A stretch of DNA of 63,210 bases, the filler included, from Aduncisulcus paluster (Eukaryota), in NCBI GenBank assembly GCA_024181965.1. It is 4 parts of 4 records of this genome, joined end to end, with 100 filler letters (N's around TTAATTAATTAA, not from the genome) between each part and the next. Parts side by side here need not be neighbours in the genome. Positions count along the whole stretch, not along the records: positions 52,959 to 63,210 come from BQXS01010804.1; 3 more parts are not named here. One strand, given 5' to 3'. The translations under genes were made by a program, and so were the position numbers. The notes under the pieces were generated by a model that was given only the letters and a program-made list of their open reading frames with translations, was not told the DNA's origin and made no database searches. Positions 10,807-63,210 of this stretch are shown here, in pieces (position 1 is the first letter of the stretch; each line of letters begins with the position of its first letter).

Positions 10807-10906
10807 NNNNNNNNNNNNNNNNNNNNNNNNNNNNNNNNNNNNNNNNNNNNTTAATTAATTAANNNNNNNNNNNNNNNNNNNNNNNNNNNNNNNNNNNNNN
10901 NNNNNN
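10807..10906. other. Artificial 100-nt gap spacer N44-TTAATTAATTAA-N44
   Basis: Palindromic six-frame stop linker inside Ns; identical at three sites. Confidence 0.97.
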
Positions 10907-23400: not shown

Positions 23401-25965
23401 ATCGGGATTTATTTGGCTCTTTGTTATATTCTTCAATAGATAAACGGCATGTAGCCAAGAATTTGATTGTTTTTGTTTACATGACATTTGTATGTTTGAA
23501 TCTCATTGTAAAATACCCCGTTTTCTATGATTCCCGTGATGCCCATAAGGAAGATTGGAACGAAGAACCAGAAGAACCATTGAAATTTATATTTGCAAGT
23601 GACAATGTAATGCAAACCATCGTGAATGAATTCTTTTTACCAATGACACAGCTTAGACATCCATTTTATTCCGGGGTTGGGCCAGAAAATACATATTTGT
23701 TGGATAAACCTTATTTTTCTTTGTTTACTACCATTGCTGAACGAATGGATTCCAAAAGAAATGCGTTCTTTCTTCTATTTCAACCAACTTTGAGGAAAGT
23801 TTTGAAAGATGTATGCAAAACAAAAGGAAAACTCCAGAAAATCTATATTTCTTCTTCTTATTCTTCCTCTTCTTCTTCTTCCTTAATTGAGGATTATCGG
23901 ACTGGGAAAAGGATACAAAAAGCTTCAAAATTTGGAGTTAAGAATCAATTTGTTGATCTTCTATTTGAGAATACTTCTCTCGGAGCTCTTAGAACTTTGA
24001 GAGCTTTGTCGACTCCACCCATAAATGAGAGGATAAAGTTTGAGATTCTCACTTTAATTGATCCATTTTATGAGAATTGGCTTGAAATATTTCATTCTGA
24101 TCCAAGATATACCCTTGAATGGATTCGTTTGATTCTGAATGTTATCAGTATTTCCAAGACAAGAAGAAGTGAAGCCAGCCATCAAAAAAATGGGAGTAAC
24201 TATCAGGCTTTACAAGGAGTTGATGTGTCAAGAAATAGTTTTCCTTCAAATGATAACGATATTATCCAGAATAGTCACCTTTCTTCTTCTTCATTAATAG
24301 ATAAGCCCAATGATGATAAGAATGGTGATTCAAATGTACATACCCTGAATTTTGTCCTTTGCAAGACTCACAATGATAATAACGATTCCGATATTATCTT
24401 ATTCAGATCAATGGTTCCGGTTTCTATTTTTAGAAATTATTGCCAATTGGCGAAGATATTGCCAACAATTAATGAGTTTTTGGCCGAATATAATGGAAAG
24501 TCTGACAGTGGCAGTATTAAGAGTCAGAAAATGGTGAAAACTACTCCAAAGAATATTTTGGTAGCCAAGGGAAAAGAAGAATCTAAATCAAAACCGATAA
24601 TACATAAACCAAAAGATCCAGAATTAGTCTTAGGGAAGTATTTTGATAGGGTGAAATCAGAATCATGGAAATTCTTTCATGTCTTGCTCCCACTCATCCA
24701 AAAATACAGACAGTTCAACGATTATCGATCATCTTCTAAAAATAGATCAAATATAAATTCCTCTTCTTCTTTCTCAAAATCTATGTTTAGCGATTCCTCT
24801 TCCTCTTCCTCTTGTACCATTTTCAATGAACAATATCATCGATTAATGCTCTTTTTTGCCCAATTGGTTGAGGATTATCCTGAAGAATTTTTAAAGAATG
24901 ATATATTTCATCTAATTGAAGATTTATTGGAGGATTGGTTGGAAGAAATCAATCGTGAGAAAGTATTTGAAGAGGAAAGTTGGAAAGACGTGCAAGAAAA
25001 GATGGTACATATGTTAGACATGTCAGGAACCAATTCTCATGAAATTAGAGAAATGAAACAACAAATTCCAGCTTCTTCTTCTTCCTCTTCCTCCTCTTCT
25101 TCCTCTTCTTCCTCCTCTTCGAATTCTATGAGAACTTGGTGTCACTTTTTGGCTGTTTTATCCACTGTTCCTGATCTTGTCCCTCAAATATCCCCCAAAT
25201 ATGATAATATCATGGAATATTGTAGAACTAGGATCCAAACTCAAGAAGATAATGTTACATTTGATGATTATGTTGAGTACATGGGAAATTGTCATCCGGA
25301 ATCTATCAAAAAGTGGAAGATTATGAATGTTTTGAAAGCTGAATTCCTTGAACCTGATAATATAACATCAATAAGTGAACATTGGGGAGTTAATGAAAAG
25401 AAAAAGGAAGAGGAAGAAGAAGAGAAAGAAAAGAAGAAACAAAAATATGGTATTTATTCAATTATAAGGTTTTTAAATGGCGATAAGATATTTTCTCCGA
25501 TTTCTTCCAGTCTTAAAGTCATATTCTATTCGATTTCTAAGCTTGTGAATGTTTTCAGTAATGTAAAAGATGAAATTTATGATTTATTTAGTTCCCTTGA
25601 CAGCGATTATATTGAAATAACATTAAGAAAACAAGAAAAAGAAGAAGAAAAAGAAGAGGAGGAAGAAGAAGAGGAAGAGGAAGAGGAAGAGGAAGAGGAA
25701 GAAAGAAAAGAGAGAGAGGAAGAAAAGCAAACGAGTGAAAATTCTACTACTTCCAAGAATAATTCGAATAATATTTGGAATATCCAGCAAAAAGTAATTC
25801 TCTCAGCCATTTTGATTGATAAACTTTGTACATCTTTTTCAGTCATTTTGTTGAAATCCTTAGATGTTGTGAATTACATTGATCAAAGAACAAAGAAAGA
25901 ATCACAAAACTTGGGAATAGAAGAAAAGATCATCAAATGCGAAAGGCTATCACTGAATGCATCTG
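17435..25965 (+). CDS. Giant helical (ARM/HEAT-like) repeat protein of a lineage-specific family; interrupted by a 685-bp duplication, 3' end lost at the gap
   Basis: ORFs 17435-21463 and 21435-25965 become one frame if one 685-bp copy is removed. Shares W..L.S..S.vP.LVP.ISPKYD..M.wC and the N-terminal block with 52959-61137. Confidence 0.75.
17909..17962 (+). repeat. 18-nt coding tandem repeat x3 (H[VA]EQGE)
   Basis: catg(t/c)tgaacaaggagaa x3. Confidence 0.9.
20760..22132 (+). repeat. Tandem duplication, unit 685 bp, frame-breaking
   Basis: ATGATTCCAAATGAAAATG at 20765 and 21450; both copies end gctcaaac (21444, 22129); the translations are identical. Confidence 0.93.
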
Positions 25966-26065
25966 NNNNNNNNNNNNNNNNNNNNNNNNNNNNNNNNNNN
26001 NNNNNNNNNTTAATTAATTAANNNNNNNNNNNNNNNNNNNNNNNNNNNNNNNNNNNNNNNNNNNN
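25966..26065. other. Artificial 100-nt gap spacer
   Basis: N44-TTAATTAATTAA-N44. Confidence 0.97.
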
Positions 26066-32923: not shown

Positions 32924-35900
32924 ATGCCTTCAAAGTTTATTGAAAGCATCCACTTTTGCAAAAAAAAGTTTCACTTGTTCCGGTGGGATTTTTTCCTTTT
33001 GTGTATTCTATACTCTATTTCTGTGGTGCCTTGCCTGAAAAAATTTGTTAAAGCATACAATGATGTTCAAACCATGGATGAGCTTAACGTACCTATGGAT
33101 GATTTGGAGCCTGAAGAGATTGAAGTTCTTGATGAGATGAGAGGTGAAGTCTACAAATCATTTTATCTTTCTCTTTTGTATCTGTTCATTCCTGTCATTA
33201 TTCATATCGTTATTATCCTTCTTAGATTTTGGTCAAACAGATATTCCGCAAAGACTGGTTGGACTCTTTCTACTTCAAAAAGAGCAAGCCATGTCATAAT
33301 ATATCCTAAAAAGGATTGTGGTAGCCCAGCTATTTGTAAAATTAAGGAGTCCCCTCGCCATAGTAGGTATATTGAGTATCAAGCGGGGAAATATCTTTTG
33401 AATTCTGATGATTCCTTTGTATCTCTTCCATATCCTGTCACAATCTCATATTCTGAAGTTAAGGAGGTTTGTGTAAATGGAGGTCTGTCCAAAGAAGATG
33501 TTGAATCTAAACAAGATCTCTTTGGAATGAACGAAGTTGATATTAGTGTTCCTAAGTTTGGAGAAGTAATTAAAGAGCATTTTATGGCTCCTTTCTTTGT
33601 TTTCCAGATCTTTACCTCTGTTTTATGGTTATTGGATGATGCTAAGTTGTTCTCCTTGTTCTCCTTGTTTATGCAGTTGGTAATGGAATGTGTGAGTGCT
33701 TTCCAGTCTCTGCAGAATCGTAAAGATATTGTCAACATGGCTCCAAGGACATCCCTTGTTTACTGTCTCCGTGATGGTAGATGGGCCAAAATCAAGAGTT
33801 CTCTCCTTGTTCCTGGTGATATCATCAGCTTGGCCCCCGTTGAGGGCCATAAAGAGAAAGAGACCAAGGGAAGAAGAAGAGCGTAAGTTAGCTATGGCTG
33901 AAGCTGAGAAGAAGCGTGCATCTGAAGAGAAGCTCTCTAAACTCATGAGCACTATCACCATGCTCTTCCCTCCTCTTGCTAGTTCTTTGAACTCTAACCC
34001 AACCTCCTCTGTTTCTCATTCTATTCCTGTTCTTTCCTCAATCGTTCCTTGCGATTGTGTCTGTATCAATGGGAGCTGTGTCGTCAATGAGAGTATGTTA
34101 ACTGGTGAAGCTACTCCTCAGGTCAAAGCCAGTATCTCTGTTGTTGACGGAGAGAAGGGAAAGGGAGAGGAAGAAGAAGAGGGAGGAATTGAGATTGATA
34201 AACAGAAAGGAATCTGTCTGTTCGCCGGTACAACTCTCCTCCAGACAACTCACTCAAACAAACCTATTCCCACTCCAAACAAGGGTTGTTTGTGTGTCTG
34301 TGTGAGAAGTGGTGGTGGAACTAGTCAAGGATCTCTATTCAGAATGATTGCTTTCGATACCGAGAAAGCCACTGTGAATACCACAGAGTCTCTTGTATTC
34401 ATGGTATCTCTCTTGATTGTGGCTACTATCGCTGCTTACCATGTCATTGTCCGTGGTCTTGAACATAAGGTTGCCACAGTTCCTCGTCTTGTTCTGGATG
34501 CTGTTCTCATTGTTGTTAGTGTTGTTCCTCCTGAATTGCCTACTGTTCTTTCTCTGTCCATCAACAATGCCCTCAGAAGTCTGAAGAAGGCATTTGTTTT
34601 CTGCACACAACCTTTCCGTATCCCCATGGCTGGTTCTCTCTCGGTCGCTTGCTTTGATAAGACAGGAACGTTGACTGAAGATAAAGTTATTGTCACCAGT
34701 GTGTGGTGTAGCGATGATGATACTTATGCCAAATCGACATCTGACAAGAAGACCCCCAAGAAAACTGATAAGAAGAAGAAGATCAAGATGTCTTCTTCCT
34801 CCCCAGAGTGTTCTTCTCCTTCGGATTCGTCCAAACCTCTCTACTTCTCCCATGAACCAGCTCGTATCAATGCCGAGTGTATGGATGTCATTGGTGGATG
34901 TCACAGTGTTGTCGTTGTCGAGGAAGAGGACTCTGTGTCTGGCAAGATCAAGAAAGTCCCATCGGGAGATAGTCTTGAAGTTGTTTCTCTCAAGTCAACT
35001 GGCTTCTCTCTCACAGCTAGCAGTACAGTTAGCAAGACTATTTGTGTCTGGGGTGTTAAGAACAAGGATATCATGAGACGTATCAACATTATGAAACGGT
35101 TCCCATTCTCCTCTGCACTGAAGAGGATGAGCTGTGTCATTGGTGTCACAAAGGGACGTGGTGGCGTGGAACAGAAGAAGATCGTTGTCAAGGGTGCCCC
35201 TGATGTCATTTCTCCTCTTCTTGCCTCTGTGCCGGCCTCTTATGAAACACAATACAAGAAACTCACGAAACAAGGCTTCCGTGTTCTCACTCTTGCTTGG
35301 AAACCCCTTGACTCCTCAGTGAATGCCTCTGGCATTAGTCGGAAAGATGCTGAGTCCGATCTCATTTTCTGTGGATTCCTTGTCATCACGTCCCCAATCA
35401 AACCTCAGAGTCGAGGAACTATCACAAACCTTCAAAATAGTGGCCATCGGTGTATGATGATCACTGGAGACGCTCTCTTGNNNNNNNNNNNNNNNNNNNN
35501 GTGTCACAAAGGGACGTGGTGGCGTGGAACAGAAGAAGATCGTTGTCAAGGGTGCCCCTGATGTCATTTCTCCTCTTCTTGCCTCTGTGCCGGCCTCTTA
35601 TGAAACACAATACAAGAAACTCACGAAACAAGGCTTCCGTGTTCTCACTCTTGCTTGGAAACCCCTTGACTCCTCAGTGAATGCCTCTGGAATTAGTCGG
35701 AAAGATGCTGAGTCCGATCTCATTTTCTGTGGATTCCTTGTCATCACGTCCCCAATCAAACCTCAGAGTCGAGGAACTATCACAAACCTTCAAAATAGTG
35801 GCCATCGGTGTATGATGATCACTGGAGACGCTCTCTTGACGAGTATCAGCGTTGCCAAGGATGTCAATATGGTTGGAAAAGATCAAAAACTGTGGAAAAT

Positions 35901-37299
35901 TGTCGGTGAATGTAAGAAGGAAGAATCTGAAGAGCTTCCTTCATTCGTTGAGCTTCTTGATGAAGAGACTGGTGAGACAAAGAAGAGCTCTGATCCTCTG
36001 GCCGATGGTCTGGTGTGTATCAGCGAGGGAAAAGCTCTACAACCTTTCCTCCTCCCTGCTCGGTTATACTCCCCATTGACTTTGTCTTTGGTCTCATGTC
36101 TCTCTATCGCTTCCAGAGCTACCCCGGACGATAAGGCCGCCATTGTCCGTGCTTTGAGACGTTGTGGAGAAGGTGTTTTCTGTTGTGGAGATGGCACAAA
36201 CGATGTTGGTGCTCTCAAGAATGCAGATGTCGGTATTGCGTTGTTTGAAAGCGCTGACTATCGTCTCCAAAAGAAGCTTGAAAATGCCAAGAAGAGGTAC
36301 CGTGCTCAACAACTTAATCCACAAGCCATGTACAGGAAAGCTGGTGAACTTGCCAAGCAACGCAAGACTTCCCTTGACTTTGAGTTGAAGACTTTGTATC
36401 AGCAACACAAGAAAGCCATCTACAAGGAATGTGGTATTGCCTGTCCTGATGATCTCCCTATGAACCCAAGGAGTGAGTTCTCTGCTCTTCTGGAAGAAGA
36501 GGAAGAAGGTATGCTTGTGAAGGTCGGAGATGCTTCAATTGCTGCTCCATTCACTGCCAAAAGTGGTCGTATCGAGGATGCTTTGAAGGTTGTCCGTCAA
36601 GGAAGATGCACATTGGTAAGTACTATCCAGATGTACAAGGTTCTTGCACTCACATCCGTATCCTCTGCCTATTCTTTGTCTGTTCTGTTCCTTGATGGTG
36701 TTCGTAGCCATGAATACCAACTTATTGTGAGTTCTCTCGCCTCAACTGCTCTGTTCTATGCCGTCTCTGATGCTAAACCCCTGGATACTCTCGCTTCCAC
36801 TCCTCCTCCCCACTCTGTGCTGAACTTGGGTGTTGTCTTCAGTATAATCGGTCAGGCCATCATGGAGATGGTTGTGCTGATATTCAGTGGTCATTTGTGT
36901 AAAGAATACTCTGGAGTAACTGTCCGCAAGACTGTTCCTTTCAAACACGAATTTGAAGAGTCACTCACAAATACTGTTTTGTTTATTGTCCAATTTTGCC
37001 TCGATGTCGCATGCATTACTGTCAATTATCAAGGAAAGCCACACACTCAGAGCATTTTCCAGAATAAGAAATTACTTTTCAGTGTTGTTGGAAGCGTTGG
37101 AGCTGTATTCGTTTTGGCTAGTCAGATGTTCCCTGAAATCAACACTATGCTCAAGCTTAAGGCCATGTCAAACGATCTTAGATGGAAGGTCCTTGGACTT
37201 TGTATAGCTCACTTTGTTATATGTTGGGTTTGGGATCGTCTTTGTCTTTTCCTGTTTAGAGGAAGATCTGTTCAAAGAAAAAGAGAAAAATCTGAATAA
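32924..37299 (+). CDS. ATP13A1: P5A-type ATPase (Spf1/ATP13A1); +1 frame break near 33868 and a gap-associated duplication
   Basis: PFFVFQIF, NESMLTGE, VVPPELP (P5 signature), CFDKTGTLT, KGAPD, MITGD, GDGTNDVGALK, GDASIAAPFT, RQGRCTLV. Start is ATG 32891 or 32924. Confidence 0.93.
35143..35838 (+). repeat. 338-bp direct repeat flanking a 20-N gap (35481-35500); unmerged contig overlap
   Basis: 35143-35480 equals 35501-35838 apart from C35333/A35691. Confidence 0.92.
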
Positions 37300-38465: not shown

Positions 38466-38597
38466 TGTAATTCTGTACACTAATAAAATCTCAGAGATGT
38501 TATTATTATTGATTTTGTTTGTGCTTTTGTATCCTATTTACTCATTGTATCTGAAAAAACAGAAACAAAATTGATTTCCCTTTTTTCTCGGCAGACA

Positions 38598-41500
38598 ATG
38601 TATTTAATTCCAGATAAAGGATCAAAAAAGAAGAAAAGGATCCAGAGCTTTAGAGATCTGCAAAAGTACTTCTCCGCTGCCGACAAGGAAGAAAAATTTC
38701 AAATGTCAATAGATTTATTGCCACCAAGCCATACATCAATAATATGGGGAATGATTGATTCTTGCGATGAAGTAAGATTGTTATGTACAAAAGTAATCAC
38801 TGATTTTGTTGTTATTTTGTGTGAGCTTGAGTCTGAGAAAGATGACTCTCTCAAAAAGCTAAATGAAGCTACCCCTTTTATTTTAACCCAAATTACTCAA
38901 CGTTTTTCGGCTGATAAGGCTCCAAGAAACTTTGGAAGTTCAGACCACTTAGCATTAGCCACCTCTCTTGGTTTCAAGGATTCTACGCCTGTTCCTTCTG
39001 TTCATAATCCATTAGAACGTTCGGATGAGGTAAAAGAAGCTATTATATATCTGCTAACAATTATTGTTGATTGTTTAACACCCTCATGTCTTTCTATTTT
39101 TTCAGACGAGATTAGTAATATCTTGATCTGTGGCACTCTCGATGAATGCCCAAAAATTAAACAAAAATCAATTGAACTTGTTAGAATTTGGTCAGATAAA
39201 CTGCCAGAAGATGCTGGATTGCGGTCCGAGAGGCTTATAGGTGCTCTTCTGATTGGTGGGATCAATAAGGGAAAACTCCGGATTAGATGTCTTGCAATTC
39301 AAGCTGCTGTTTCAGTTGTGAGTGGAAGAGGTAAGAATGAGACTGTTACACGTCACTTGGTAGAAAGGCTCATCGTTCTTAATCGTGATCCGAAAATTGG
39401 AGTCAGACTCTGTTTGGCTGAACAAATTGGGACATTGCTGACAAAACACGTTGATAGACATACTTTAGGACCTGTATTCACTTCATGTTTGTTGTCCTTA
39501 CTCTCTGATCCCTCTGAAGAGGTTGCTCGTGTTGCATTGAATTCACTTGAACAAGGAGGTGAACAATTACTTCAAGACGATAAGAAACGGTACAAACAAC
39601 TCATTAATTTCCAAGATTCTCTGTCGGCACCCATTACTCCCTATAAACAGGCCTACCTCCCTTTCTGCAGCCATCCAATTGTTACAAGACCCTCTTTAGG
39701 ATCCAGATTGCTCGTTAAGAATTGTTTATCGAGAATAATTGGTGTGGTTGTCACGGAGCTCACTGATCCTATCCTTTCCGTTCGTATTCGGGCACTTCGT
39801 CTTCTTGGACACATCATTGCTCATTCCGAACGTGAAATTGCCCGTTATTCCTCATCAATTATTGAAGGTCTTTCTGGAGCCTTTGAAGGTGTAGACTTTC
39901 AAGGAATTAGTCAAAACAGCCGTTTCTCTACTTCTTCTTCTGTTCCAAGTTCCTCTGGATCTGGCAGTGAGACATCTATGGCTGGAGCAAGATACATACG
40001 TGATGGTGGTAAGTTATTTACTTCCGTCGATTCAATGGTTAACTCTGCTACTGGATCGGGATCTTTGCAATCCTCCACCACCCCATCTCGTCCTCACGTT
40101 GAACTTTCTCGCTACGGTCTTGATAAGTACCATCGTGAACGTCAGATGAAGTTAGAAGAAGAGAAAAGAATGCTTCGTCTCTCTTCATCTCCGTGTGCCC
40201 CCTGTGTTGGAGTCTGTGGTGGGGTCATTAACGATGACGATCAGCGAGTCGGGAAAGAAGAGAAAGAGCTTATGTTTGAAATGAGAAAGACCAGTGCTCT
40301 TCTGTTCCTCTCGTTGCCCCTGTCCATTTCTCTAAACCACCTTTCCCACCTCTCTTGTGGAAGGTCATGTATGGCTAGCTCTGTTTCAGTCAGTGAGGAG
40401 AGGAAAGGATGTGCGTTCTTTATGCTTTCTGTGCTATACGATGTGTGGGCCTGTGTGTATGAATGTGGAGGGAAAAGGAGAGATTCTGCCAAGGAGGAAG
40501 ATGGAGGGAAATTGGAAGATGATGAGGATAAAAAGGAGAAAGGAGAGAAGAAGGGAAGAAGAAGAAAAGGAGAAAACTGGAGATTCTACTGTACATGAAG
40601 AAATTGCCTTCTGGGCCAGTTGTGTGTATGACTTATTAGGAATGCAAATCCGACTCCATCTTAAGCGTGAAGTTAAGATCCACGAAGATTTCAAATCTTT
40701 ATCTTCGTTCGTGTCAACCCTATCCACAGTTGACAAGACTCGAACATTCTTTGCTGAATTTGTTCTCTCCGCAGTTGGACTCCTCAAGGTTGTCCAAGAA
40801 ATGGAGGTGAAAAAACAAAGGGAGATTCTTGAAGAAGAGAAGAGGGAGAAAGAGAAAAGGGAGCATAGAGCAATGGTTGATAAACGAGAGGCTGAGAGGG
40901 GAAGTTCTTCTTCCACGGTTAAAGTATCGCCATCTCAACTGGACAATTCTTCCTCTTCCTCCTCTTCTTCCATTCGCCAATTCCCATCTCCCCTCTCACC
41001 AACTCAATCTATTGGCAAACTTCTAACGTTGTTATGTCTTCTTCTTGCTGCCCCTCTTTCGCTTTCCTCTGCTTCTTTCTCTGCTCTGTGTGGACTCGAT
41101 GGTTTGTGTAATATTGGAGTAACTCTTCTGGAAGAGGACTCATCCTCTGTTTTGACTCATATCTTCCCTCTTGTGAGTCATACACTGATCAAACATAGCA
41201 AGGATGAGTGGACACAGATTGAGTCTCCTTCCTTGTCTGCCCTGTGCATTCTTCTCCTCGGATATTCTCCTGTACAATTCCACACTTTTATCGGGAAAGA
41301 CATGTCTGTGCGTCCATATATCTATTCAGAAGCCCTGAAATGTCAGAGACGTCACTCCACCGGACTCTTGCAACCAGCAGTTGCTCGCATCTTTACTTGT
41401 GATTCCCTCTCTACGAAACCATATTTGAATGCTATGAAAGGTATTCTAAAGTCTATAATGAATGGAATGAAGATTGGATGTGATCAAGGTGTCAGAGCTA

Positions 41501-43342: not shown

Positions 43343-45346
43343 TTACAATTTCTTCGAATCGCTCTCTTCTCCCACACTTGGTTCATCGATCAATGGATCC
43401 TCTTCCTGATTCGCACAGGCACATCCAGTCATGCCCTGAAGAGCACCAAATACAACGCCAACAAATTCTGACATGTGCATGAACGATGATTCAAGGTAGT
43501 TTAGTTCCTCAGGAAGGGTAGATATTTGTTCTTTATGGACCTCAGAGGGATTGAGAGTACCTCCAGATGGAACAAAGGACTCCACAACTTCCTCATCGGC
43601 ATCAAATAGTTGCATTCCTTCGTTGACAACACATTGAAGGTAACAATTCGTGTTGAGGGTTACACTCGAACTTGAGGAGCTTTCGACTTCTTCGTCGTAA
43701 TAGGAATAAGATATCTCATCATCAAGAGAGAAGGCACTCTGTTTGGATTCTAATGATTCTTTTTTATCTCCTTCTTCTTTCTCTTCCTCACTGATATCAT
43801 CTTTCGCATGAAAGGCATCCCAATGTTCATCAATAGTCTGATCTGAGGGTTGGACATCCTGAGATTCACTTTTTCCAGCGTCTCTAGCCTCTTCTTTGCT
43901 ATATTTGGATATTGAATCAGAAGTCGTCGCGGTGGGGTCTGTTTTTGAACGGCTTGCTTCCTCAACAGTGCTCATATCGCCAGTAAACTTCACTTTGCTT
44001 CATGGATNNNNNNNNNNNNNNNNNNNNTCTCCTTCTTCTTTCTCTTCCTCACTGATATCATCTTTCGCATGAAAGGCATCCCAATGTTCATCAATAGTCT
44101 GATCTGAGGGTTGGACATCCTGAGATTCACTTTTTCCAGCGTCTCTAGCCTCTTCTTTGCTATATTTGGATATTGAATCAGAAGTCGTCGCGGTGGGGTC
44201 TGTTTTTGAACGGCTTGATTCCTCAACAGTGCTCATATCGCCAGTAAACTTCACTTTGCTTCCTTCTAAAATACTCTGGACAGATAATGGGTATGCTTTG
44301 GATCCTCTCTTCCTTTTTCTATGCATTCTGTGTTTCGTCAAAAGATCGGATGATGGATGAGTTGAAATGCCCTCAGAAGTCCGTTTGGCTGCTTCAAACT
44401 TGATTGTATCATGGGGAGGAACAATAAAACAATTCTGATTCTTTTTCTTGTATGGAAAGAATTCAATGAGATAAGTATGGATCTTAAGACCGGCATCATG
44501 AAGGATATTTTGGGCCGAATTCATGGAGTGGAAACATATTGTACCTGTGCTCCAGGCCATATGAGCGTTGTGCCAACTCCAAGATTTTATCATTCCATAT
44601 TTATGCTCAAGCAACATGCGGATTCTAAATGAGGTAACAACGCCCGAGGAGGATTGTAGATCGGTCCTATTCACATGAATTGCACGATCATCATCAGTTG
44701 GAATCTGTGAAGTCGGAGGAATGCGAGAAATAACCAGGAAGAGGGAGCGAATTGTTTGAGTCTCTGAGGGATCTTTAGAGGGTAATTTTGGAAGGTTGGT
44801 ATAGACAAAAAAACAATCAAGCATGGAAAATAACAAGGAATACCAATTGATAGTGAATTGTATTCGAATTCTAACCTTTGGTTTTCGCCCAGATTTGTGT
44901 TCAGTTGATACAATTGTAAAATTATCTTTTCCAATGGAATCAGAAAGAATTTGTTTGACATAATCGATTATACTACCGATATATACAGCACTTCTCTCAA
45001 ATAAATTACACTCTTTTGATTCGGGATATGGAGCAACACTTAAAATCATATTATATTTGGGTGTTTTAAAATGTTGCAAGAATTGATCCCTTGAATAAAA
45101 CAACATGAACTGAGTATCATCACATGGCAATTTTTCAACGTATTCTTTCATTGATAGATCAGATGTTCCAATAATATGATTCTCAAGTTTTTCAATGTTC
45201 ACAATGGATGGATTACTAGAAATAATAACCGTTTTATCCGACAATAATGCATCTGTTTTGCGAATGGAAGTGATCCATCCTTGTGGGGAATTGAAAATGG
45301 TAATTATATATTCAAAGGCTAAAACTTGTTCTTTACGTAAATTCAT
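43343..45346 (-). CDS. Hypothetical protein with possible degenerate RRM and acidic C-terminus; split by a 20-N gap
   Basis: ORFs 44000-45346 and 43343-43993 overlap through the duplicated flank. LFLVISRIP...IRMLLEHKYGMI...TGTICFHSMNSAQNIL is RRM-like; HRKRKR is a possible NLS. Confidence 0.6.
43767..44262 (+). repeat. 235-bp direct repeat flanking a 20-N gap (44008-44027)
   Basis: 43767-44001 equals 44028-44262 apart from C43957/A44218. Confidence 0.92.
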
Positions 45347-52858: not shown

Positions 52859-52958
52859 NNNNNNNNNNNNNNNNNNNNNNNNNNNNNNNNNNNNNNNNNN
52901 NNTTAATTAATTAANNNNNNNNNNNNNNNNNNNNNNNNNNNNNNNNNNNNNNNNNNNN
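52859..52958. other. Artificial 100-nt gap spacer
   Basis: N44-TTAATTAATTAA-N44. Confidence 0.97.
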
Positions 52959-55900
52959 AAACAGCATATTTCATAAAATCAGGATACAAACCTCCATTAT
53001 CCTTACACCATGACATGTTATCATCGTATTTAGGAGATAAATGAGGAACAAGAGATGGAATTGAGGAAAAGATAGAAATCAAAGTTGACCAAAATCTCAT
53101 TCCCCGATTATGTTTCTCCTTCTTAAAGGCATTAAACCAACCATCAAGAAGATATTTAATGTTTTCATACACTTCACGAGCATGTAAGAAATTACAACAC
53201 AAATTGGAAAAGAAATCTAAAACATGAAAACATGTTCCTTTCAAAATTCCATCTCCAACGCATTCTTTCTTCACAATGGCGAGAATTGGGAAGAAGAATG
53301 GCCATATTTCAGAACATATGGTTTGATTTGGTGATTTTTCTCCCGATAACTGGGTGAGTTTTGCCAATATGATAATCCATTTTTCAAAATACTCAACATC
53401 TCGATATATTCTCAACCAAGCTTCAAGATATGGTTTGATGAGGGCGAAAATGGATGATCGAGTGGAGGAGGATCCTGAAATGGATATATTTTTGAGTGCA
53501 ATCAAAACATATTTTGGGATATTCCCTTCCAACTCCCTCTTACTTCCTCTTTCAAGAAGACGTTGAAGAGCAGGAGAGATTCGAGGAAAGAAGGAATCGA
53601 GTTCATTAACTTTAAATGAAAAATAGACACAAATACAACAATATTCATCATCAACATCTTCCTTTAATATTGTTGAAACTTTAGATAAATAATCAATAAA
53701 CGTGTAAATAAGGTCAGTAAAATCAGGAATGGGAAGATAGATGGATGGGTCGGAAATTACATGTTTCGCAAATAAAGCTAAACATTTACAACAAAGAACT
53801 ATTTCTTTTTTGTTTTCTCTAATTTTCCGCCTGGATTGATACTTACGGAAAACAGAGACAATATATTTTTTATGTTCGTGGTATAATTTAGAGGTGGATT
53901 CTGAATACGGGGTATTTTTAATGGAAGAAATTAAATTTTCTAATTTCTTTAAGTGGGGATAAAAACAATTCATAATATATTTTGAATAATCATCACTCCT
54001 ACCACCATTCTCCTTACACCATTCCATTTTGGAAGTGAATTTGGAAATCAAACAATCTATAAGAGATGGGTTGCTGGAGAGCATGGAAATGAGTTCTGAC
54101 CAATATTGGATTCCTCGATCATCATTCTTCCTCTTTATAACTTCAAACCATTCATCAAGAAGATCTTCAATGTTATTATATATTTCACGGACATGTGATG
54201 GATCACTGCACAAATTAGAGAAGAATTTTAAGACACGGATATATTTTTGCTCAATAATCTTATCCCCAACAATGGATCTTTTTACAACATCAAGAATTGG
54301 GTGGAAGAATAACCATGATTCGGAACAAATGATTTTGTTTGGAGAATCATCTTCTAATGACCAAGTCAGATCTGATAATATACTTATCCACTCTTCATAA
54401 TAGATAATTTTCTGATATAATTTCAACCAGTCTCTGATATAGGGTTTGATAAGGGTGAAAATAGATGATAGAGTGGAAGAAGATTGGGATATGGAAAGAT
54501 TTTTAAGAGTCATCAAGAACCTCTTTGGGAGATCTCCCTGTAACTTCTCCTTACAACCTCTCTCTAAAATACGTTGGAGAGTTGGAACAATCTTAGGAAG
54601 GAATAAACCAAGTTCATCAACTTGAAAAGTATAAGCAATACAAATATTACAATACTTTTCGTCAATAGATGATTCCAATACTTCCTCAACATGCGATAAA
54701 TGAACAATGAAAGTATCGATCATATCATTTAAATCAGAAATCGGAAGATATATTTCATTTCCAGAACTCATATGCATCACAATCAAGTCTAAACACTCAC
54801 AACATGATACAAACTCTGTCTTATGTTCTTCAATTTCACTCTTGGATTGATAAGCAAGGAAAACTGAAAGGAGTAATTCTCGATTTTCTTGGTAGAGTTT
54901 TGAAATTGAATCTGAGTCTCGTGATTTTAGGATGAGACGAAGCAATTTTCCCATAGATTTTGGATAATGATCACAATTTTTCCGATATTTTGTGTAATTA
55001 TCATTGACCTTTTCATTATCCTTACACCATTCCATAGCGGCATCAAATTTAGGTGATATACGAGGCACAAGAGATGGAACAGTGGAAAAAATAGAAATCA
55101 ATTCTACCCAATATTTAATTCCCCATTTGTGTGTCTTATCCTTTATCACTTCAAACCAACCCTCAAGAAGATGATTAATGTTATTAAATGCCTCAATCGT
55201 ATGAGAGAGATCACAGCACAAATTGGAGAAGAGTCTTATTATTAACACATTAGATCCCATTAACATAGTTTCTTTAATATAATATTTCTTGACCATGTTA
55301 AAAATTGGTTCTGAAAATGCCCATATCTCAGAGCAAATAGTTTTGTTCGGTGATTTATCTTCCGCTAACCAAGAAATATTTGTCAATATAACAAACCAAC
55401 TTTCATAGTACTGGCTATCATGATATACTGTCAACCAATCTTTGAAATACGGTTTTAGCAAAGAGAAAATAGATGAGCGGGTTGAATACACCTCAGAACT
55501 TGAGATATTTCGCAGAGAAATCAATAAACACTTTGCAGATTCTCCTTCTAATTTCTGCTTGCATCCTCTTTCAAGGATGCGTTGAAATGTTGGTGCGATT
55601 TTGGGAAGGAAGGAATCATTCTTATCCATACTATACTGATTTATAAATGTATTGAAAACACAAATTGTACAATACTCTTCATCAACATCAATTTCTAAAA
55701 CTTCCTCAACTCTTGACATATGCTCAAGAAAGGTATCAATAAGATCATGAAGACACGAAATAGAAAGAAATACTTTTAATCCAGAGATTTTATGTCTAAC
55801 AAACCACATTAAACACTTACAACATAACACAAGTTCTGAGTTATGTTCTTTAATATCACTCCTGGATTGATATGAATGAAAGAGAGAGAGAATGTATTCT

Positions 55901-58900
55901 CGATATTCGTGGTACAATACAGATATTGACTCTGAATCAGGGCATTTCTTAATGAGGCTGATCAATTCCTCCAATTTTTGAACGTGAGGGTGACAATTGT
56001 TATGATACTTTGAATAATCTGATCTCAGGCCTCCATTATCCTTGCACCATATCATTTCCTCATTATATTTAGGATATAAATGGGGAACAAGAGATGGAAC
56101 AGTGGATAACATGGAGATCAAGTTCGACCAGAATTTGATTCCCCAATTGTATTTCTTCTTCTTGACCGATTCAAACCAACCATCGAGAAAATCACTAATC
56201 TTGGCATACATAAATATTGCATGCGATGGATCACAGCAAAAATTAGCAAAGAGTATAGTCGAATAACACAAAAATGTTTGGCTTTGGCAAGAGTTTTCCC
56301 ACCAAACTCCCTCTTTATGATATTTAGAATTATGTGAAAGAATGGCCAAATGTCGGAACAAATTGTGTCGATTGGTGTTTTTGATTCTTGAGAAAAAGAA
56401 ATTCTTGACAACATTATAATCCATTCTTCACAATATTCAATATCTTGATATTGTCGAAACCAATCTCCAATATGTGGTTTAATAAGCGAAAATATTGAAA
56501 GCAAAGTCGAGGAAGAATTTGAACTGGAGAAATTTTTAAGTGAAGATAATAAATGAAAAGGAATATCACCATTCAATGGCTCCCTCCGTCCTCTTTCAAG
56601 AATATTTTGGAAAGTAGGTTTCACCTTGAGAAACAATGAATCCAAAATCATAATAATCTTGGGAAGATCGTTTTCATATTCATCTCTCACCTTGAACAAA
56701 TAATCAACACAAATTGCACAATATTCTTCATCAACATCTCTTTCTAGAACTTCCTCAACTCTTGATAAATGAGTGATGAAAGTATCAATGAGATCATTAA
56801 GGTCAGAAATGGGGAGAAATATTTTTGTTCCGGAAATGGAATGTTTTACAAACCATCTTAAACACTGACAACACAATATGATCTCCTTTCTATGATATTC
56901 AATTTCACCTCTGGATTGATCTGAAAGAAACAAGGAAAGAATTGACTCTCGTTGTTCGCGATACATTTTAGAAGTCGATTCTGAATCCGAGCATTTCTTG
57001 ATCAAATCTATCAAATCCATCCATTGTTTTTGAATGAACAAATTATCATCAATCATTTTTGAAATTTGACCATTTTGGTGATATCTTGTATAATAACTCC
57101 TCAAAGCCCCATTATCTTTACACCATGCCATAGCACTATCATATTTTGGAGATATTTGAAACACAAGAGATGGAACGGTTGAAAGAATTGAAATGAAGTT
57201 AGACCAATATCTAATCCCCCATTTATGCTTTTTCTTCCTAAAAGCTTCAAACCAACCTTCAAGAAGATGATTAATATTATTATGCACTTCAATGGCATGC
57301 GAGGGATCACAGCAAAAGTTGGCAAAGAGCAGTAAAACAAACCGATAATCACCTTCAAGGATTGCCCTCCCAATAATTTTTCCCTTTATAATTTCAACAA
57401 TTGGATGAAATAATGGCCAAAGTTCAGAACAAATGGGTTCGACGGGAGCATGAAGTTCTGGTGACCAAGTAAGTTTCGACAAGATAATTATCAAAACTTC
57501 ATTAATATTATCTCCATATATTCTCATCCAATCCTTTATATATGGTTTGATGAGGGTGAAGATGGATGATCGAGTGGAAGATTTGGAATTGGAAATATTG
57601 CTGAGAGTATGTAACATATACAAAGGAACATCTCCATCAATCTTTTTCTTACTTCCTCTTTCAAGAATACCTTGGAAAGTTGGAGCTATTTTGGAAAGGA
57701 CAGAATCATATTTATCTTTAATCTTTGATGTATAACTGAGACAAATAACACAATACTCTTCATCGACAGCTCCTTGCAAAACTTCCTCAACGGTTGAAAA
57801 ATATCCAATAAAAGTTTCAAATATATCAATAAGATCAGAAATAGGAAGATAAATATTTCCTAGTTGGAAATTTCCAACAGATTTTGGATCATGGAAATTA
57901 GAAAAACGGAAAAGAGTATTATTCTTGGAAAATTTATGAGTTATCAACCACATTAAACTATTAAAACATATAGAAATATCCATAATATTTTCTTCGATCT
58001 TATTTTTGGATTGGGATGCAAGAAATACAGAGAGAATAGCATTTCTATGTTGGTGGTAAAGTCTCGAAGTTTCCATGATATCAATTTTGGAGTCTGAATC
58101 AATCGCATTCTTGATGGTATCAATTAATCTGCCGAGATCAATATCATCAATTTCGGGATTTGGATCAATTAGAGGGGATAATTGTGAAGAAGATGATGGG
58201 GAAATGAGAGAAACTCTTTTTGGGGGTTGAGCAAGACTCTGACAGTTCTTTTCAAATTGAATGAATGATTCTTTCCACCCACCATTTTCTTTGCACCATC
58301 TCATATCTTCATCATATCTAGGTGACAACTTAGGAACAAGAGATGGAACTAAGGATAACGTGGAGATTAACATTGCCCAGTATTTGATCACCCAAATGGC
58401 TTTCTTTCGTTTAACAAAAGTGATAATATCATCAAGATAATCTTTAATACTTTGATATACTTGGATGGCATGATCTTGATTAATACAACACAGATTTGAG
58501 AAAAAGAAAAGAACAGTTGGATAATCTTTAATCTTTTCTTCATTATATTGATTTTTGAAAATATCGAGAATAAAATCAAATAAACTCCATGTTTTTTCAC
58601 ATAAAAATTGATTTGGTCGCTTAATATCTCCCTCCAAAGTGAGATTAGCCAGAATTTTAATCCATAACTCAAACAGATTTGGATAATTCTCCAACCAATC
58701 TCGAATAAATGGCTTTATCTGATCTAAAATGAAGGATTTTGTGGGAATAGATTTAGATAAAGTTGCTAAATTTATGAAAATTTCAAGAATATCAATTGCA
58801 ATACTCATATCCATCTTTTCTTTTCTTCCTCTTTCAAAAATAGAATGAAAAAATGGATAAAGCTTCATAATAAAATAATTTATCTTTGAATTACTTGCTT

Positions 58901-61137
58901 TGTATGTATATGTTTTGCATATTCCTAAATATTCTTCATCAATACAAGATTCCTTCACTATTCCTTGAATACGAGACAAATGACTGTGAAAAGTTTCAAT
59001 TATATCATCATATATGTAGAAAACAGCCTTCTTTCCATCTGTGGAATGGTACGAAACCTCACGTAAACATTGGAAGCATTTGTGAAATATTTTGGAATGT
59101 TCAATAATCTCTTGTTCAGATCGAAACGATAAAAAAATTGAAAGAATATCATTCTTATGGCCCAAATAGAATCTCGAAATTTCTTTTGGCCCTGAACAAC
59201 ATTGAATATTCTCCAATATACCTGCAAATATTCTCTCCACAATGGGATATATTTTTGGGACCAATTTTTGATAGAGCGATTTAACTTTAGATTCGGCTAT
59301 TGAAACAATTCGAAATAAAATATGAGAAACATTGTCAATGTTTTCGAAAATATCCTCAGATCCTTCTTCAGATCCTTCCCCAGATTCTTCCTCAGATTCT
59401 TCCTCAGATTCATAATCAGGATCCGATGATTTTAATGATTGTACTTCCTCCTCCTCTTCGATCTCAACTTCTTCGATTATTCTAAGGCAGGATTCCACTT
59501 TGATCATAGATGAGAGAAATGAGTTTATCATTTTTTCGAGAGAAGAACTTTCAAGAAAGATACTCTGATTGTCATTTGAGTCATGTCGAGAAAAGAGGTA
59601 AAGACACTTGAACAACTCCAAAAATAGGTCTTGACGGGTTTCAATTTCTTGTGGAGTTTTGTATTTTTCAAATAGATTAGAAATCATAGAAAATTTTTGT
59701 TCAAAGAGAATTGACACTTCGGAATCTGAAGATGTTTTTAAAATAGCCTTTTGCAATGAATCAAGATCACAAATTGAGAGAGAATCACATGATGCGACAC
59801 TTATCTTCTTTAATGGCAATTCTTCTTCTAATCCAGAATGTTCTTCTGAATGAGGTGGAGATTCTGGATTAAATCTTCTCTTTCCTATATCTTCCTGTGT
59901 TTCTGTAGAATACTTTTGGAATGGCTTCAACACTTTAAATATGCTCCCAGGATTACTATCATCTTTCTCAAGTCGAACACTATGGATAGGGAGTGGATTC
60001 CACCCTTCCCCAATCTTTGGAAGGATGGATTTGAGAGGTTGAACTTTCTTCCAAGCTTCATGAACTGACATCCGTTCATCAATATTCAATTTGGTTAACC
60101 CTTCAAAGACTTCACATAAACAGAAATAAATAGATTTATATTTTCCATCTTCGATGGTTTTGAGAGATCGAAACAGAGGACAACTGGAGAGTTTAGGACC
60201 CAAGCCTTTTGAAATAATCTGAATGAGGTCCTTTGCAAACTCTGATGTTGGTTTCCTTTTATCGGGGGATATAGTCATATGGGTAAAAGGATCACTTGAC
60301 TTAAAAATAGAATACATGGTTAATCCCAGAGAATATGCATCACTACTTTGGCTCCAATCTCCCTGAAGGGCTTCAACAGAATTGTATAATAGTCTTTCAT
60401 TCATTTTGCAGCGAAATGTTAATTTATCTTGATCAGAAGATGAAATAGGGGGTTTGATATGATCTGTTGTTGTAAAGGTTAAATGAGACTTGATAGAATT
60501 TTGGATTTGAAAGAAACCCACTTTTCCAAGAACAACAGTACATTTCTTGGAAATTGAATCGTAATGAATGAAAAAATTATCTGGGGTAATGGCATTATGG
60601 ACAAATCCAGGCTGAGTTGTAATAATATTTTGGAGACATTCCAATGCATAAAGAAGTTAACTTTAGTGGGTTTAAGGTCGAAGAATCAAGGAATATCGAA
60701 TAATCAGAACTAACTGACTCGGAACCCTCTTCAGAACAAGAGTTCGAATCAGATTCTTCTCTGTCTGTAGCTTTTAAGGACGAACTCGGAACATATTTTC
60801 TATCATTGCACCAACTCTTTGCAAAGTATTTTACAGTGCTACCTTGACAGAATTCCCTACAAAATCCAACTCCATCAGCCACTCCAAAATCTACGAGACA
60901 AAGAGGACGAGGAATGCAACAAGAACGCTCATACAATTTTTGCTGAAATTTTAATACTTTTTGGCAATCTTTTAGGATCTGATTATTCCCTATATGAATG
61001 ATTCTCTCACAAACACAAGGAAAGGAAATTTTTGGGAGTGACAGCATAATAAGCTCATTTTCATCATGACATGAAACTTTATATATTGATTTTATATCAG
61101 AAAATGATAGAATAGTGGTGTTAATATCCTTTTTCAT
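52959..61137 (-). CDS. Pseudokinase fused to six or more ~340-390 aa helical repeats; frame breaks near 60640 and 56255 (possible pseudogene)
   Basis: Kinase subdomains REFCQGS, FVHNAITPDNFFI, VLGKVGF, YNSVEAL, SDAYSLGLTM, ERMSVHEA; repeat motif W..LIS..S.vPSLv..lspky...M.WCK.NG six times. Confidence 0.78.
59353..59411 (-). repeat. 12-nt coding repeat (ESEE/GSEE x5)
   Basis: tcctcagattct-like units on the + strand. Confidence 0.8.
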
Positions 61138-61478
61138 TGAGATATTATAATTTAGGGTTACAAGTTAAAATAGGAAGATAATTCAGATAAAGTTAATTAA
61201 TATATTTTTAAAAACGAATAAAAATCGCAAAAAATATATTTAAGCAAAATTTACATAGATCAAAATCCAGAAATATCAAGAAAAATAATGAGGTGACATC
61301 GAGACTTGAACTTTTGGAAGCTCATTTTTTTCAACTTCAAAAATTCTCGGAATCGTGTCTTGAAATAGTCAAATATGTTATAAAACGTGATAAAATGTGA
61401 TAAAACAATCAATTATAAAATAATTTATTTGAACTTTTATGAAAAACATAAAATCACTGATTCTGTACACTGGCAGAA

Positions 61479-63210
61479 TCAAACTCCAGAATAATCAGAA
61501 TAGGAATCATAATCAGAATAACTATAATCATATCCATCTGAATCTTTATCTGGAACGGTGTGACTCTCTCCACCCTCCTCTTTGTGTTCAAAGGTGACGG
61601 TAGATGAATTTTCTCCCGGTTGCTTCTCTCTTTCTTCCTCAGATTCGTCAGATTCTTCCTCTTCCTCTTCCTCCTCTTCGAGATCTTCGATGGCACTCTC
61701 ACATTCCATCAATAAAGCAGACAATGAGTATGGATCGGTGAATCCACAGGAATAATTGAAGATTGTCTTACTAATAATGAAAACTGAGCTATTGGAACTC
61801 GAAGATGGAGGCGACGACTGTGAGTTCGACCGTCCAGAAAGCTGTAAACAACGCTCTAGATCTTCAAGGGCGGCTGTCCATTGTTCCCCAAACATCTTGG
61901 CTCTTGCGAGTCCCTGGTAAGCTTCGGATGTGACACAAAACCAATTGGCAGAATTGAAAAAATTAATACTCTCCGAAATAAGATCTTTATGCCGCTTAAT
62001 ATTGAGAGAATCATCGTGTTGAAGAAAAGTGTGTGAAAACTCAAGACATACGCGTCCGAGAAGGAGATAAATCTTGGCTTTGCAAACTGATGGCAGTGAA
62101 CATGGCATTAGAGCCACAATTTGTTTCGTGAGACAATGAGCTACATAGGCATACCAAGAACGTGTGCAAGGAACGTAAGGACATGAAACTTTGTCCCATT
62201 GGTATTTAGAAGCTCCATGATGGGGTGCCCTTCTGCCTGTTGTTGAATGGACCATTCCAATGCTCTGAGAGGCTATAGCTGATGCAATGGCAGATGGAGT
62301 GTGAGTTGAAGCATAAGAAGGAGTAAATGATGATTGTGCTTTGTGAGAATTCGTAAGATTATTGAGAGAGGCAGAAGCAAGAGCAGAAAGGGATATAGAT
62401 AACGATTCAGGGAAGAACGGGGCAGTAAATGGCGATTCTTTCTGTTTTACGGCCTCGTCAAGACCAATTTCACTCGCAATGCTTAACAATATCTCACACA
62501 GACATACGTGGCCCCATATGCACCCTGGCTGAGCTCTTACAACAGACTCACCATAGTTCAGAGCACTCACGAGTCTACCCTCCCTGGCACACACTGCACT
62601 CATCTGTAACATTAGGATAGTATCACATGGTCGCAGCTTCAATGACGATATGAGGGAAGAGTGTGTCGTTGTTCCAATTGAAGCAGACAGGTTAGGAGCT
62701 GCTGAGAAAGAATGAAGGAGAGAATGGTGCAATGAGCACATATGCTGGGAAGTAAAACAGCACGATAGCATCGACAATGGCAGATCAGAAGCACTCATAG
62801 ATCCTCCAAACACTCCAGAGGAGCTAGATCCACCATACGAGGATGACACAGAGCCTGTTCCTGAAGCCGAGTAAGTGGCATCGGCCAGGCTAATGTCCTT
62901 CGCTTTCTCGGCCAATGAGGCAGCTGTCTGTGGTGATCCTCCACAGAGCATGACCATTGCACTGAGGGTATGAGTCAGCGGATGTGAAGGATATGTGTTG
63001 CGCAATGATCCAGAAATAGAATGAAGGTGAGTATTTGACGAGAGAAGTGAGAAAGAAAGAGCAAGGGAATGTTGAATTGATATAGAATGTGAAGTGAAGG
63101 TCTGAAGAGCTTCAGAGGCGATTGAAGAAGCTGTCAACGGATCACACATGGTGTGTAGACGTGTGTTAATGGCCTTTAAAAAGAATCTCTCGCTATTTCT
63201 GAATGGGATT
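61479..63210 (-). CDS. TPR-like helical repeat protein, C-terminal part (5' end beyond the window)
   Basis: Frame is open upstream of 63149 to the window end. TPR-like ALNYGESVVRAQP...GHVCLCEI and AYQGLARAKMFGEQWTAALEDLERCLQL; acidic tail. Confidence 0.65.
   Translation of the reverse strand, partial: IPFRNSERFFLKAINTRLHTMCDPLTASSIASEALQTFTSHSISIQHSLALSFSLLSSNTHLHSISGSLRNTYPSHPLTHTLSAMVMLCGGSPQTAASLAEKAKDISLADATYSASGTGSVSSSYGGSSSSGVFGGSMSASDLPLSMLSCCFTSQHMCSLHHSLLHSFSAAPNLSASIGTTTHSSLISSLKLRPCDTILMLQMSAVCAREGRLVSALNYGESVVRAQPGCIWGHVCLCEILLSIASEIGLDEAVKQKESPFTAPFFPESLSISLSALASASLNNLTNSHKAQSSFTPSYASTHTPSAIASAIASQSIGMVHSTTGRRAPHHGASKYQWDKVSCPYVPCTRSWYAYVAHCLTKQIVALMPCSLPSVCKAKIYLLLGRVCLEFSHTFLQHDDSLNIKRHKDLISESINFFNSANWFCVTSEAYQGLARAKMFGEQWTAALEDLERCLQLSGRSNSQSSPPSSSSNSSVFIISKTIFNYSCGFTDPYSLSALLMECESAIEDLEEEEEEEEESDESEEEREKQPGENSSTVTFEHKEEGGESHTVPDKDSDGYDYSYSDYDSYSDYSGV

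Follow-up and report, generated by a model that had tools for sequence, protein, structure and literature searches.

Proteins that join a kinase or pseudokinase to an alpha-solenoid are a known kind of protein, and two described systems are the closest to the gene considered here. In Giardia, the portion of the source drawn on for this analysis counts 198 Neks, most of them inactive (71%); 133 of the 198 place an N-terminal kinase before 1–26 ankyrin repeats, the Protein 21.1 family, which lacks the kinase, is a relative of the expansion, and those Neks whose location was determined were found on cytoskeletal structures (PMC3218828). The pseudokinase ULK4 and the active kinase STK36 are described, in the part of the preprint used here, as carrying C-terminal armadillo (ARM) repeats and having centrosomal and tubulin-associated partners (bioRxiv 10.1101/2020.06.18.159293). 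The present analysis concerns a minus-strand gene at positions 52959–61137 of a stretch of DNA of 63,210 nucleotides (nt), filler included (the window), from Aduncisulcus paluster, a free-living flagellate of the Fornicata; all named relatives of the locus come from A. paluster.

In this gene a kinase-like domain with an erased active site precedes an array of ~1-kb units, and the locus is a divergent member, probably pseudogenised recently, of a large A. paluster-specific kinase-armadillo family. The likeness to the Giardia Nek/Protein 21.1 system has several parts: both organisms belong to the same lineage, the Fornicata, and both show a massive lineage-specific expansion of one kinase family, an N-terminal kinase followed by a variable alpha-helical repeat array, and dead-kinase and kinase-less members, with some of the kinase remnants cryptic (Giardia side from the same portion of PMC3218828). 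With ULK4 and STK36, again as far as the part of the preprint used here describes them, the locus shares the order of an N-terminal kinase or pseudokinase and C-terminal armadillo interaction repeats.

The tandem units and their predicted fold

Three long minus-strand frames (60595–61137, 56118–60656 and 52959–56427) make up the locus and read as one gene with a kinase-like domain, a partial unit (R0) and six complete units (R1–R6). An initial annotation, made from the sequence alone, had recognised a kinase fused to a long array of ~1-kb helical repeats, and this single gene bears it out; what it had missed were the two frame breaks, R0, the truncation at the contig end and the artificial linkers of the window. 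Cutting after each WCK motif defined the six complete units, which are 336–391 amino acids (aa) long. The features are as follows, with E-values from BLASTP or, as independent E-values (iE), from a hidden Markov model (HMM) of the family kinase.

52959–61137, minus strand: whole locus, predicted pseudokinase plus predicted armadillo-domain array; first Met at 61137, 3′ end cut by the contig end
60643–61137, minus strand: predicted pseudokinase N-lobe, in the first frame; BLASTP to the P0008 kinase E 1e-16, family kinase HMM iE 3e-33
60641–60646, minus strand: frame break 1, in kinase helix alphaE; ~8 nt short relative to paralogues
59982–60644, minus strand: predicted pseudokinase C-lobe and family-specific tail (HNAITPDN, KVG, SDAYSLG, LPKIGEGW); family HMM iE 4e-75, BLASTP to P0008 E 3e-66
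59478–59771, minus strand: partial unit R0, profile positions 21–117; BLASTP with R5 E 2e-8, followed by an acidic Ser/Glu-rich insert
58290–59318, minus strand: unit R1, 343 aa, the most diverged unit
57117–58289, minus strand: unit R2, 391 aa, carrying two insertions
56041–57116, minus strand: unit R3, 359 aa, split by frame break 2
56251–56255, minus strand: frame break 2, in unit R3; ~5 nt surplus relative to other units, directly preceding the FANFC motif
55021–56040, minus strand: unit R4, 340 aa, part of the two-unit model
54013–55020, minus strand: unit R5, 336 aa, the folded unit, predicted to be an armadillo-repeat domain
53002–54012, minus strand: unit R6, 337 aa, placed by unit alignment, BLASTP and profile
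52959–53001, minus strand: start of an inter-unit linker, 14 residues past the sixth WCK; a conserved linker cut by the contig end
52859–52958, no strand: artificial joint, outside the gene; N44-TTAATTAATTAA-N44

The gene ends at 52959 where the contig ends, and therefore the array is incomplete; record 1 of the contigs that another assembler built from the sequencing run X1 extends 430 bases past this position. The W codons of the WCK motifs start at 58298, 57125, 56049, 55029, 54021 and 53010, at spacings of 1173, 1076, 1020, 1008 and 1011 nt. All six of the WCK repeats first reported are thus present at a spacing of 1008–1173 nt, though their W codons lie 3–6 nt away from where they had been placed. 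The motifs reported along with them are likewise kept across the array, with F[SA]N[LF]C in all six units, P.[FL]Q.[IL][LF]ERG in five, and W[GV]I and [LI]PI[SP]D[LF] in four each.

Pairwise identity among the six units is 34–53% at the amino acid level, and BLASTP of R5 against the other five gives E-values of 2e-55 to 4e-108, far beyond chance. At the nucleotide level the units are 51–66% identical (differing by 35–49%), and because of this divergence Tandem Repeats Finder detected no DNA-level array of units, only a 12-nt tandem repeat (59353–59424) that codes for the acidic insert. Searches against Pfam gave no match at E ≤ 0.01 in all three gene frames, and at E ≤ 10 the three units tested out of six (R2, R4 and R5) gave chance-level matches only, with no Arm, HEAT or Ank among them. 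With R5 as query, the ESM Atlas yielded no clusters other than generic HEAT/ARM-like or unnamed ones, and recognition was low.

The fold of the unit is clearer from structure prediction. An AlphaFold2 model of R5, made with an alignment of 30 family sequences, has a predicted local distance difference test score (pLDDT) of 94 and a predicted template-modelling score (pTM) of 0.89, and consists of 16 helices and two small beta-hairpins. The best PDB matches to this model by Foldseek are designed armadillo proteins, importin-alpha (TMq 0.66), p120 catenin and beta-catenin. In a VIA-align comparison covering 48,161 representative chains, R5 matched p120 catenin (Z 22.0, root-mean-square deviation (rmsd) 3.1, 290 aligned), Kap60/importin-alpha (Z 21.7, rmsd 2.9, 285 aligned), plakophilin 1 (Z 21.2), Vac8 (Z 20.5) and beta-catenin (Z 19.4), and several axonemal ARM proteins were also among the matches. 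The matches span residues 12–336 of R5, and the scores are well over the usual level of the tool for helical repeats. On this model each ~1-kb unit is, with high confidence, predicted to be a whole armadillo-repeat domain of ~seven ARM repeats, and the gene a tandem array of such domains. The earlier statement that the repeat belongs to no named family holds for Pfam sequence families, but the fold itself can be named: the AlphaFold and Foldseek run on a single unit that the initial annotation had proposed points to an armadillo-repeat domain. A two-unit model of R4 and R5 has a pLDDT of 90.8 and a pTM of 0.62, and matches generic long solenoids only (TM 0.2–0.34).

The R5 model superposes on the canonical armadillo proteins (importin-alpha, beta-catenin, p120 catenin, plakophilin and Vac8) with Z ~20–22 and an rmsd of ~3 Å over 280–290 residues, yet there are clear differences from them. 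Sequence identity to R5 is 7–12%, no Pfam Arm/HEAT match was obtained for the units tested (R2, R4, R5; E ≤ 10), whole ARM domains are here repeated in tandem at least six times, and the units combine two small beta-hairpins with conserved CxxC motifs. Cys and His residues conserved across 156 units (R5 numbering; window ~54640–54804) are C73 (90%), C76 (92%), H83 (76%), C124 (67%) and C127 (76%). This CxxC...CxxC pattern could form a zinc site, which would be unusual in an armadillo domain.

The kinase-like domain and the A. paluster family

Upstream of the array, Pfam PF00069 (Pkinase) matches the C-lobe at E 0.048 and 13.5 bits, below the cut-off of 31.7, and does not match the N-lobe; the paralogues P0129, P0056, P0114 and P0126 pass the same cut-off. 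Homology of the whole domain to kinases is seen through P0008, with BLASTP E-values of 1e-16 for the N-lobe and 3e-66 for the C-lobe. The family kinase HMM was built from 21 family kinase domains, and the catalytic motifs were compared in an alignment with 22 paralogous kinase domains.

Gly-rich loop: family G.GGFGEV, this locus SCHDENEL
beta3 Lys: family VLKK, this locus VCER
alphaC Glu: family RKEFK, this locus QKVLKF
Catalytic loop: family HRDIKP[ED]N, this locus HNAITPDN
DFG: family D[LH]G, this locus KVG

The HNAITPDN and KVG of the initial annotation can be read directly in the second-frame translation, and its observation that neither a Gly-rich loop nor VAIK is visible agrees with SCHDENEL and VCER, such that all of the catalytic motifs have been replaced. 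The beta3 Lys has become Glu, the catalytic Asp has become Ala and the Asp of DFG has become Lys, and the Lys of the catalytic loop is gone as well. Since the beta3 Lys, catalytic Asp and DFG Asp are all lost, the domain is, as judged from its residues, a pseudokinase.

This makes the locus an outlier, as most of the paralogous kinases look active. The three residues (K/D/D) are intact in 71 of 80 domain rows, and at least one is missing in nine, the row of this locus included; two of these nine are pieces of P0149 and possibly alignment artefacts. The locus is alone among the 80 rows in lacking all three. Dead members do therefore exist alongside a family that is mostly active, as the cataloguing of active and dead kinases proposed at the outset brings out. 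Erosion extends beyond the active site: the domain keeps 69 of 117 family-conserved kinase columns, the lowest value among 73 near-full-length domains (others: median 111, minimum 74), with 24 of 56 kept on the N-terminal side of HRD and 45 of 61 from HRD onward. The family kinase itself is a divergent eukaryotic Ser/Thr protein kinase. In the PDB its profile matches HRI (4.5e-10), CDPK1, RIPK1, NDR, Aurora, CK1 and IRAK4, and the best 60 of its 175 matches there contain neither a Nek nor a ULK-family chain.

The repeat-profile search that the initial annotation had suggested recovered a large A. paluster family. Three units as queries gave 67 protein matches, 66 of them from A. paluster and one from EukProt NY0171 (the same strain), while a five-unit profile searched against 1.84 billion representatives matched 96 clusters at E ≤ 1e-3, 69 of them at E ≤ 1e-30. 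Seventeen of the 20 named representatives (of 96 clusters) are from A. paluster. The remaining three, the metagenome proteins P0131, P0137 and P0141, match only a 22-residue motif at the end of the unit profile (positions 312–336) and are judged to be cases of motif resemblance, not homology: P0131 and P0137 were rejected as unit homologues as they carry 9–11 tandem copies of an unrelated ~24-aa repeat (NP.LTPALIEKYE.KL.W type), and P0141 was rejected for having the same hit pattern (9–11 times each). The kinase region of P0096 as a query gave 95 matches, 94 of them from A. paluster/NY0171; the single mite match (E 8e-10) was set aside as an ordinary kinase match. Every convincing match comes from A. 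paluster, so the family is, so far, restricted to this organism, in agreement with the expanded lineage-specific family first envisaged. The family is unnamed in Pfam, and no description of a kinase-armadillo family was found in the papers covered by the search.

A census of 230 retrieved database proteins, with the deposited model of this locus (P0070) left out, found units in 141, the family kinase in 113 and both in 33; among these 33 the kinase comes first in 28 and the units in five. Deposited models, many of them partial, hold 0–5 near-complete units, and the six complete units of this locus are the longest array among the retrieved proteins. P0019, P0024 and P0049 are laid out exactly as this locus is, with the kinase followed by a half unit, an acidic insert and full units. 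Other partners are occasional, comprising LRRs (P0056, with a kinase), a TAF6-like HEAT domain, RRM and C2HC zinc fingers, and some of these may be fused gene models. The models of two further paralogues, P0058 and P0216, also carry reverse-transcriptase or chromo/integrase-type Pfam domains; retroelements may adjoin family members or the models may be fused with them. Elsewhere in the window, on another contig, lies a second and far more diverged relative of the armadillo-unit family (17435–25965, plus strand), with long frames at 17435–21463 and 21435–25965 in different registers and the contig end cutting the gene. It shows unit-profile stretches down to iE 1e-18, and by BLASTP is 25–29% identical to family members (E down to 6e-64).

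The units of this locus have retained the character of the family. A set of 150 other units has 42 columns conserved in 80% or more of its members, and the units of this locus keep 33–41 of them, within the range of the set itself (median 39, 5th percentile 26). Pairwise ratios of nonsynonymous to synonymous change (dN/dS) between them are 0.23–0.43, with dS at ~1 or more; no pairwise dN/dS exceeds 1, there is no overall excess of replacement changes, and no in-frame stop occurs in the ~2,729 codons of the locus. The kept columns, the low dN/dS and the absence of stops indicate that purifying selection acted on the armadillo array up to recent times; the kinase active site, by contrast, has been erased.

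The initial annotation had gone further and likened a signalling domain with a variable helical array to innate-immune receptor architectures, suggesting that it may be an expanded recognition system. In such a family the arrays would sense molecules of prey, symbionts or viruses, signalling would pass out through the kinase, and the dead copy would serve as a decoy or adaptor. A large lineage-only expansion with 0–5 near-complete units per deposited protein would suit a variable intracellular recognition system, as would the fair divergence between units (median best identity 73%; 42% for R1 and 56–61% for R2–R6), a moderately relaxed dN/dS of 0.23–0.43, and the few members that join a kinase to LRRs (P0056). 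However, no NTPase, death-fold, TIR or immune-type domain was found in the protein of this locus or in the 11 partner-rich paralogues scanned, nor did Pfam find an NLR/STAND-type NACHT or NB-ARC NTPase in the three gene frames or those 11 paralogues, and no signal peptide-like or membrane segment is evident by eye in the translation. No pairwise dN/dS lies above 1 either. Among the units of multi-unit proteins, 3 of 111 have their best match within their own protein; the arrays are therefore old and not rapidly reshuffled within the gene, and the family grew mainly by whole-gene or block copying. Neither an NTPase nor a signalling domain besides the kinase is seen, and the nearest analogues are kinase scaffolds of the cytoskeleton or cilium; an immune-receptor role is unsupported, and the recognition system as a whole is highly improbable. 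Were it true, the receptor repertoire would have grown by a route involving neither NLRs nor LRRs, one built on modular and evolvable armadillo surfaces and possibly echoed by the Nek-ankyrin expansion of Giardia.

Frame breaks, gene model and assembly

The reading of the locus as a recent pseudogene depends on the two frame breaks. At break 1 homology to the paralogues passes from the first to the second frame within alphaE, and at break 2 the second and third frames swap in R3. Each is a register change of 1–2 nt, with homology reaching the break in both frames, and by comparison with related sequences they look like a loss of ~8 nt (break 1) and a gain of ~5 nt (break 2), not homopolymer slips. 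Introns were ruled out as their cause on two grounds: homology reaches each break in both frames, and the introns that have been modelled at the locus would cut conserved unit sequence and are each crossed at one end by contigs of X2, a second run of the same sample. X2 may be an RNA run, but no conclusion on expression of the locus was drawn from it.

Those introns belong to the deposited model ADUPG1_007752 (GKT34393.1, here P0070; "hypothetical protein, partial", 2,080 aa), which is identical to the window across three blocks. It starts at an internal Met at 60404, within the kinase C-lobe, and its exons map to 60404–59223, 58442–56625 and 56199–52960. The intervening 'introns' of 780 and 425 nt take out, respectively, the greater part of R1 and the segment of R3 containing frame break 2. 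The two stretches spliced out are open and homologous to other units, and X2 contigs (records 14 and 11) read through one end of each 'intron' with no joint, for which reasons we regard the introns as gene-prediction artefacts across a broken repeat gene and the model as doubtful.

It should be considered whether the breaks belong to the genome or to its assembly. The genome of strain NY0171 is an Illumina-only MaSuRCA draft of 29.4 Mb in 25,863 contigs with an N50 of 4.6 kb, annotated with 15,316 BRAKER2 proteins at a BUSCO of 40% (PMC9933649); the announcement is silent on a kinase-armadillo family. If both breaks were assembly or consensus errors of this short-read draft, the gene would be intact and would encode a true pseudokinase scaffold of more than 2,700 aa. 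Such a gene would be expected to look much as this one does, with 33–41 of 42 conserved columns kept, no in-frame stop in ~2,729 codons and dN/dS below 0.45, and other dead-kinase members exist, P0091 being present in the EukProt source as well. The quality of the draft is in keeping with errors, and break 2 falls in a bin of ~20x depth, where words shared with paralogues could mislead an assembler. The form of the breaks argues the other way, as multi-nucleotide indels (~8 nt lost, ~5 nt gained) are atypical of Illumina errors. Furthermore, the X1 contigs of the other assembler show no inserted or deleted letters relative to the window, with record 3 (56084–57552) spanning break 2 gap-free, and from the second run record 16 of X2 (60546–60865) spans break 1 gap-free. 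An intact gene thus appears unlikely, and we lean towards a gene that is truly broken, a young pseudogene.

Summed DNA word depth in X1 reaches 24,876 in the bin 56061–56342 and 17,486 in the bin 57471–57752, against ~1,240 in neighbouring bins (~20x and ~14x), and these are probably short stretches shared near-identically with many paralogues. X1 is without cover over ~58035–61400; a filter may explain this and no inference was drawn from it.

Assembly could have affected the locus on a larger scale, if mis-joined paralogues had produced the unit count, the unit order or the joining of kinase and array. The high fragmentation of the assembly, the depth spikes in two bins and X1 contig joints between units (53321 to 57642, 53662 to 56851, and 57574 back to 53630, with sides of 20–33 letters) would all fit with a partly artefactual array. 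The joints are, however, very short-sided and probably reflect shared words only, and the units differ by 35–49% of their nucleotides and are therefore distinguishable by 150-nt reads. X1 contigs of 3,203 and 1,469 nt are collinear with the window with zero differing letters, and the paralogues P0019, P0024 and P0049 share the architecture on other contigs. We consider a mis-joined array very unlikely.

Several considerations nonetheless weigh against the reading of the locus as a recently pseudogenised kinase-armadillo gene. The breaks could be short-read assembly errors in a repeat-rich family; X1 may be the source of the assembly and hence not independent of it; break 2 lies in the bin with ~20x word depth (24,876 vs ~1,240), and no X2 contig among those listed spans it; and preserved units without stops fit an intact gene equally. 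With regard to structure, the ARM fold is that of a predicted model and not of a solved structure, and the relative arrangement of successive units is uncertain at a two-unit pTM of 0.62. The likeness to Neks and ULKs is architectural and not phylogenetic; membership in either family is not supported, and the scaffold or cytoskeletal role given to the family comes by analogy only.

The wider window offers little context for the gene. It consists of separate contigs chained by three artificial N44-TTAATTAATTAA-N44 linkers (10807–10906, 25966–26065 and 52859–52958), which put stops into all six frames, and it holds two N20 gaps (35481–35500 and 44008–44027). As separate contigs have been joined, gene neighbourhood across the joints is meaningless. 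The gene lies on the last piece (52959–63210; 10,252 bases), where a neighbouring open reading frame at 61482–63149 matches an NCBI protein exactly; this upstream neighbour (61479–63149, minus strand) is 556 aa long, and its sole match is a weak one to TPR. Other contigs in the window encode Vac14 (4893–8201, plus strand), a DNAAF5-like HEAT protein (38571–40598, plus strand) and a P-type ATPase (33696–37299, plus strand), the last interrupted by an N20 gap.

Proposed function and significance of the family

Armadillo domains are peptide- and protein-binding surfaces. In this family the armadillo arrays may act as protein-binding platforms that tether the kinase to partners or structures, most plausibly cytoskeletal or flagellar ones, with the dead-kinase members serving as scaffolds or regulators. 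The copy described here would have lost catalysis long ago and then persisted as a non-catalytic scaffold, a phase suggested because its armadillo units stayed under family-typical constraint. Later it would have acquired the two frameshifts, after which only a 180-aa N-lobe fragment would be translatable from the first Met.

The differences from the closest described systems limit how far the analogies extend. The super-repeats here are 340-aa armadillo units, in contrast to the 33-aa ankyrin repeats of the Giardia Nek/Protein 21.1 system, and a key catalytic residue is missing in 9 of 80 rows, compared to the 71% of inactive Neks given in the portion of the Giardia source drawn on here. Neither the unit-profile search (20 of 96 clusters named) nor the kinase-region search returned a Giardia protein, and the best 60 of the 175 PDB matches to the family kinase include no Nek. 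ULK-family chains are likewise missing from these 60, and ULK4 and STK36 differ further in being single-copy and widely conserved, with neither tandem 340-aa super-repeats nor a lineage expansion. The analogies are architectural only, because the family kinase groups with neither Nek nor ULK among these best PDB matches. What is new here is the use of whole, predicted ARM domains as tandem super-repeats; a divergent kinase clade that has expanded very strongly, and so far as seen only in this lineage, in a flagellate that is related to Giardia but free-living; and a locus in which the kinase has decayed and the scaffold has been preserved.

The expansion comprises at least 141 unit-carrying proteins, compared to a draft proteome of 15,316. 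The family probably also adds to the fragmentation of the draft and to its faulty gene models. Its active kinases, dead kinases and kinase-less scaffolds mark successive stages of one path, and the locus described here lies on this path. Fornicate cells are built on elaborate microtubular cytoskeletons. In this setting A. paluster has independently expanded a different kinase clade on a different solenoid than Giardia, which suggests that fornicates have arrived more than once at the same design, a kinase tethered to a helical array that can expand.

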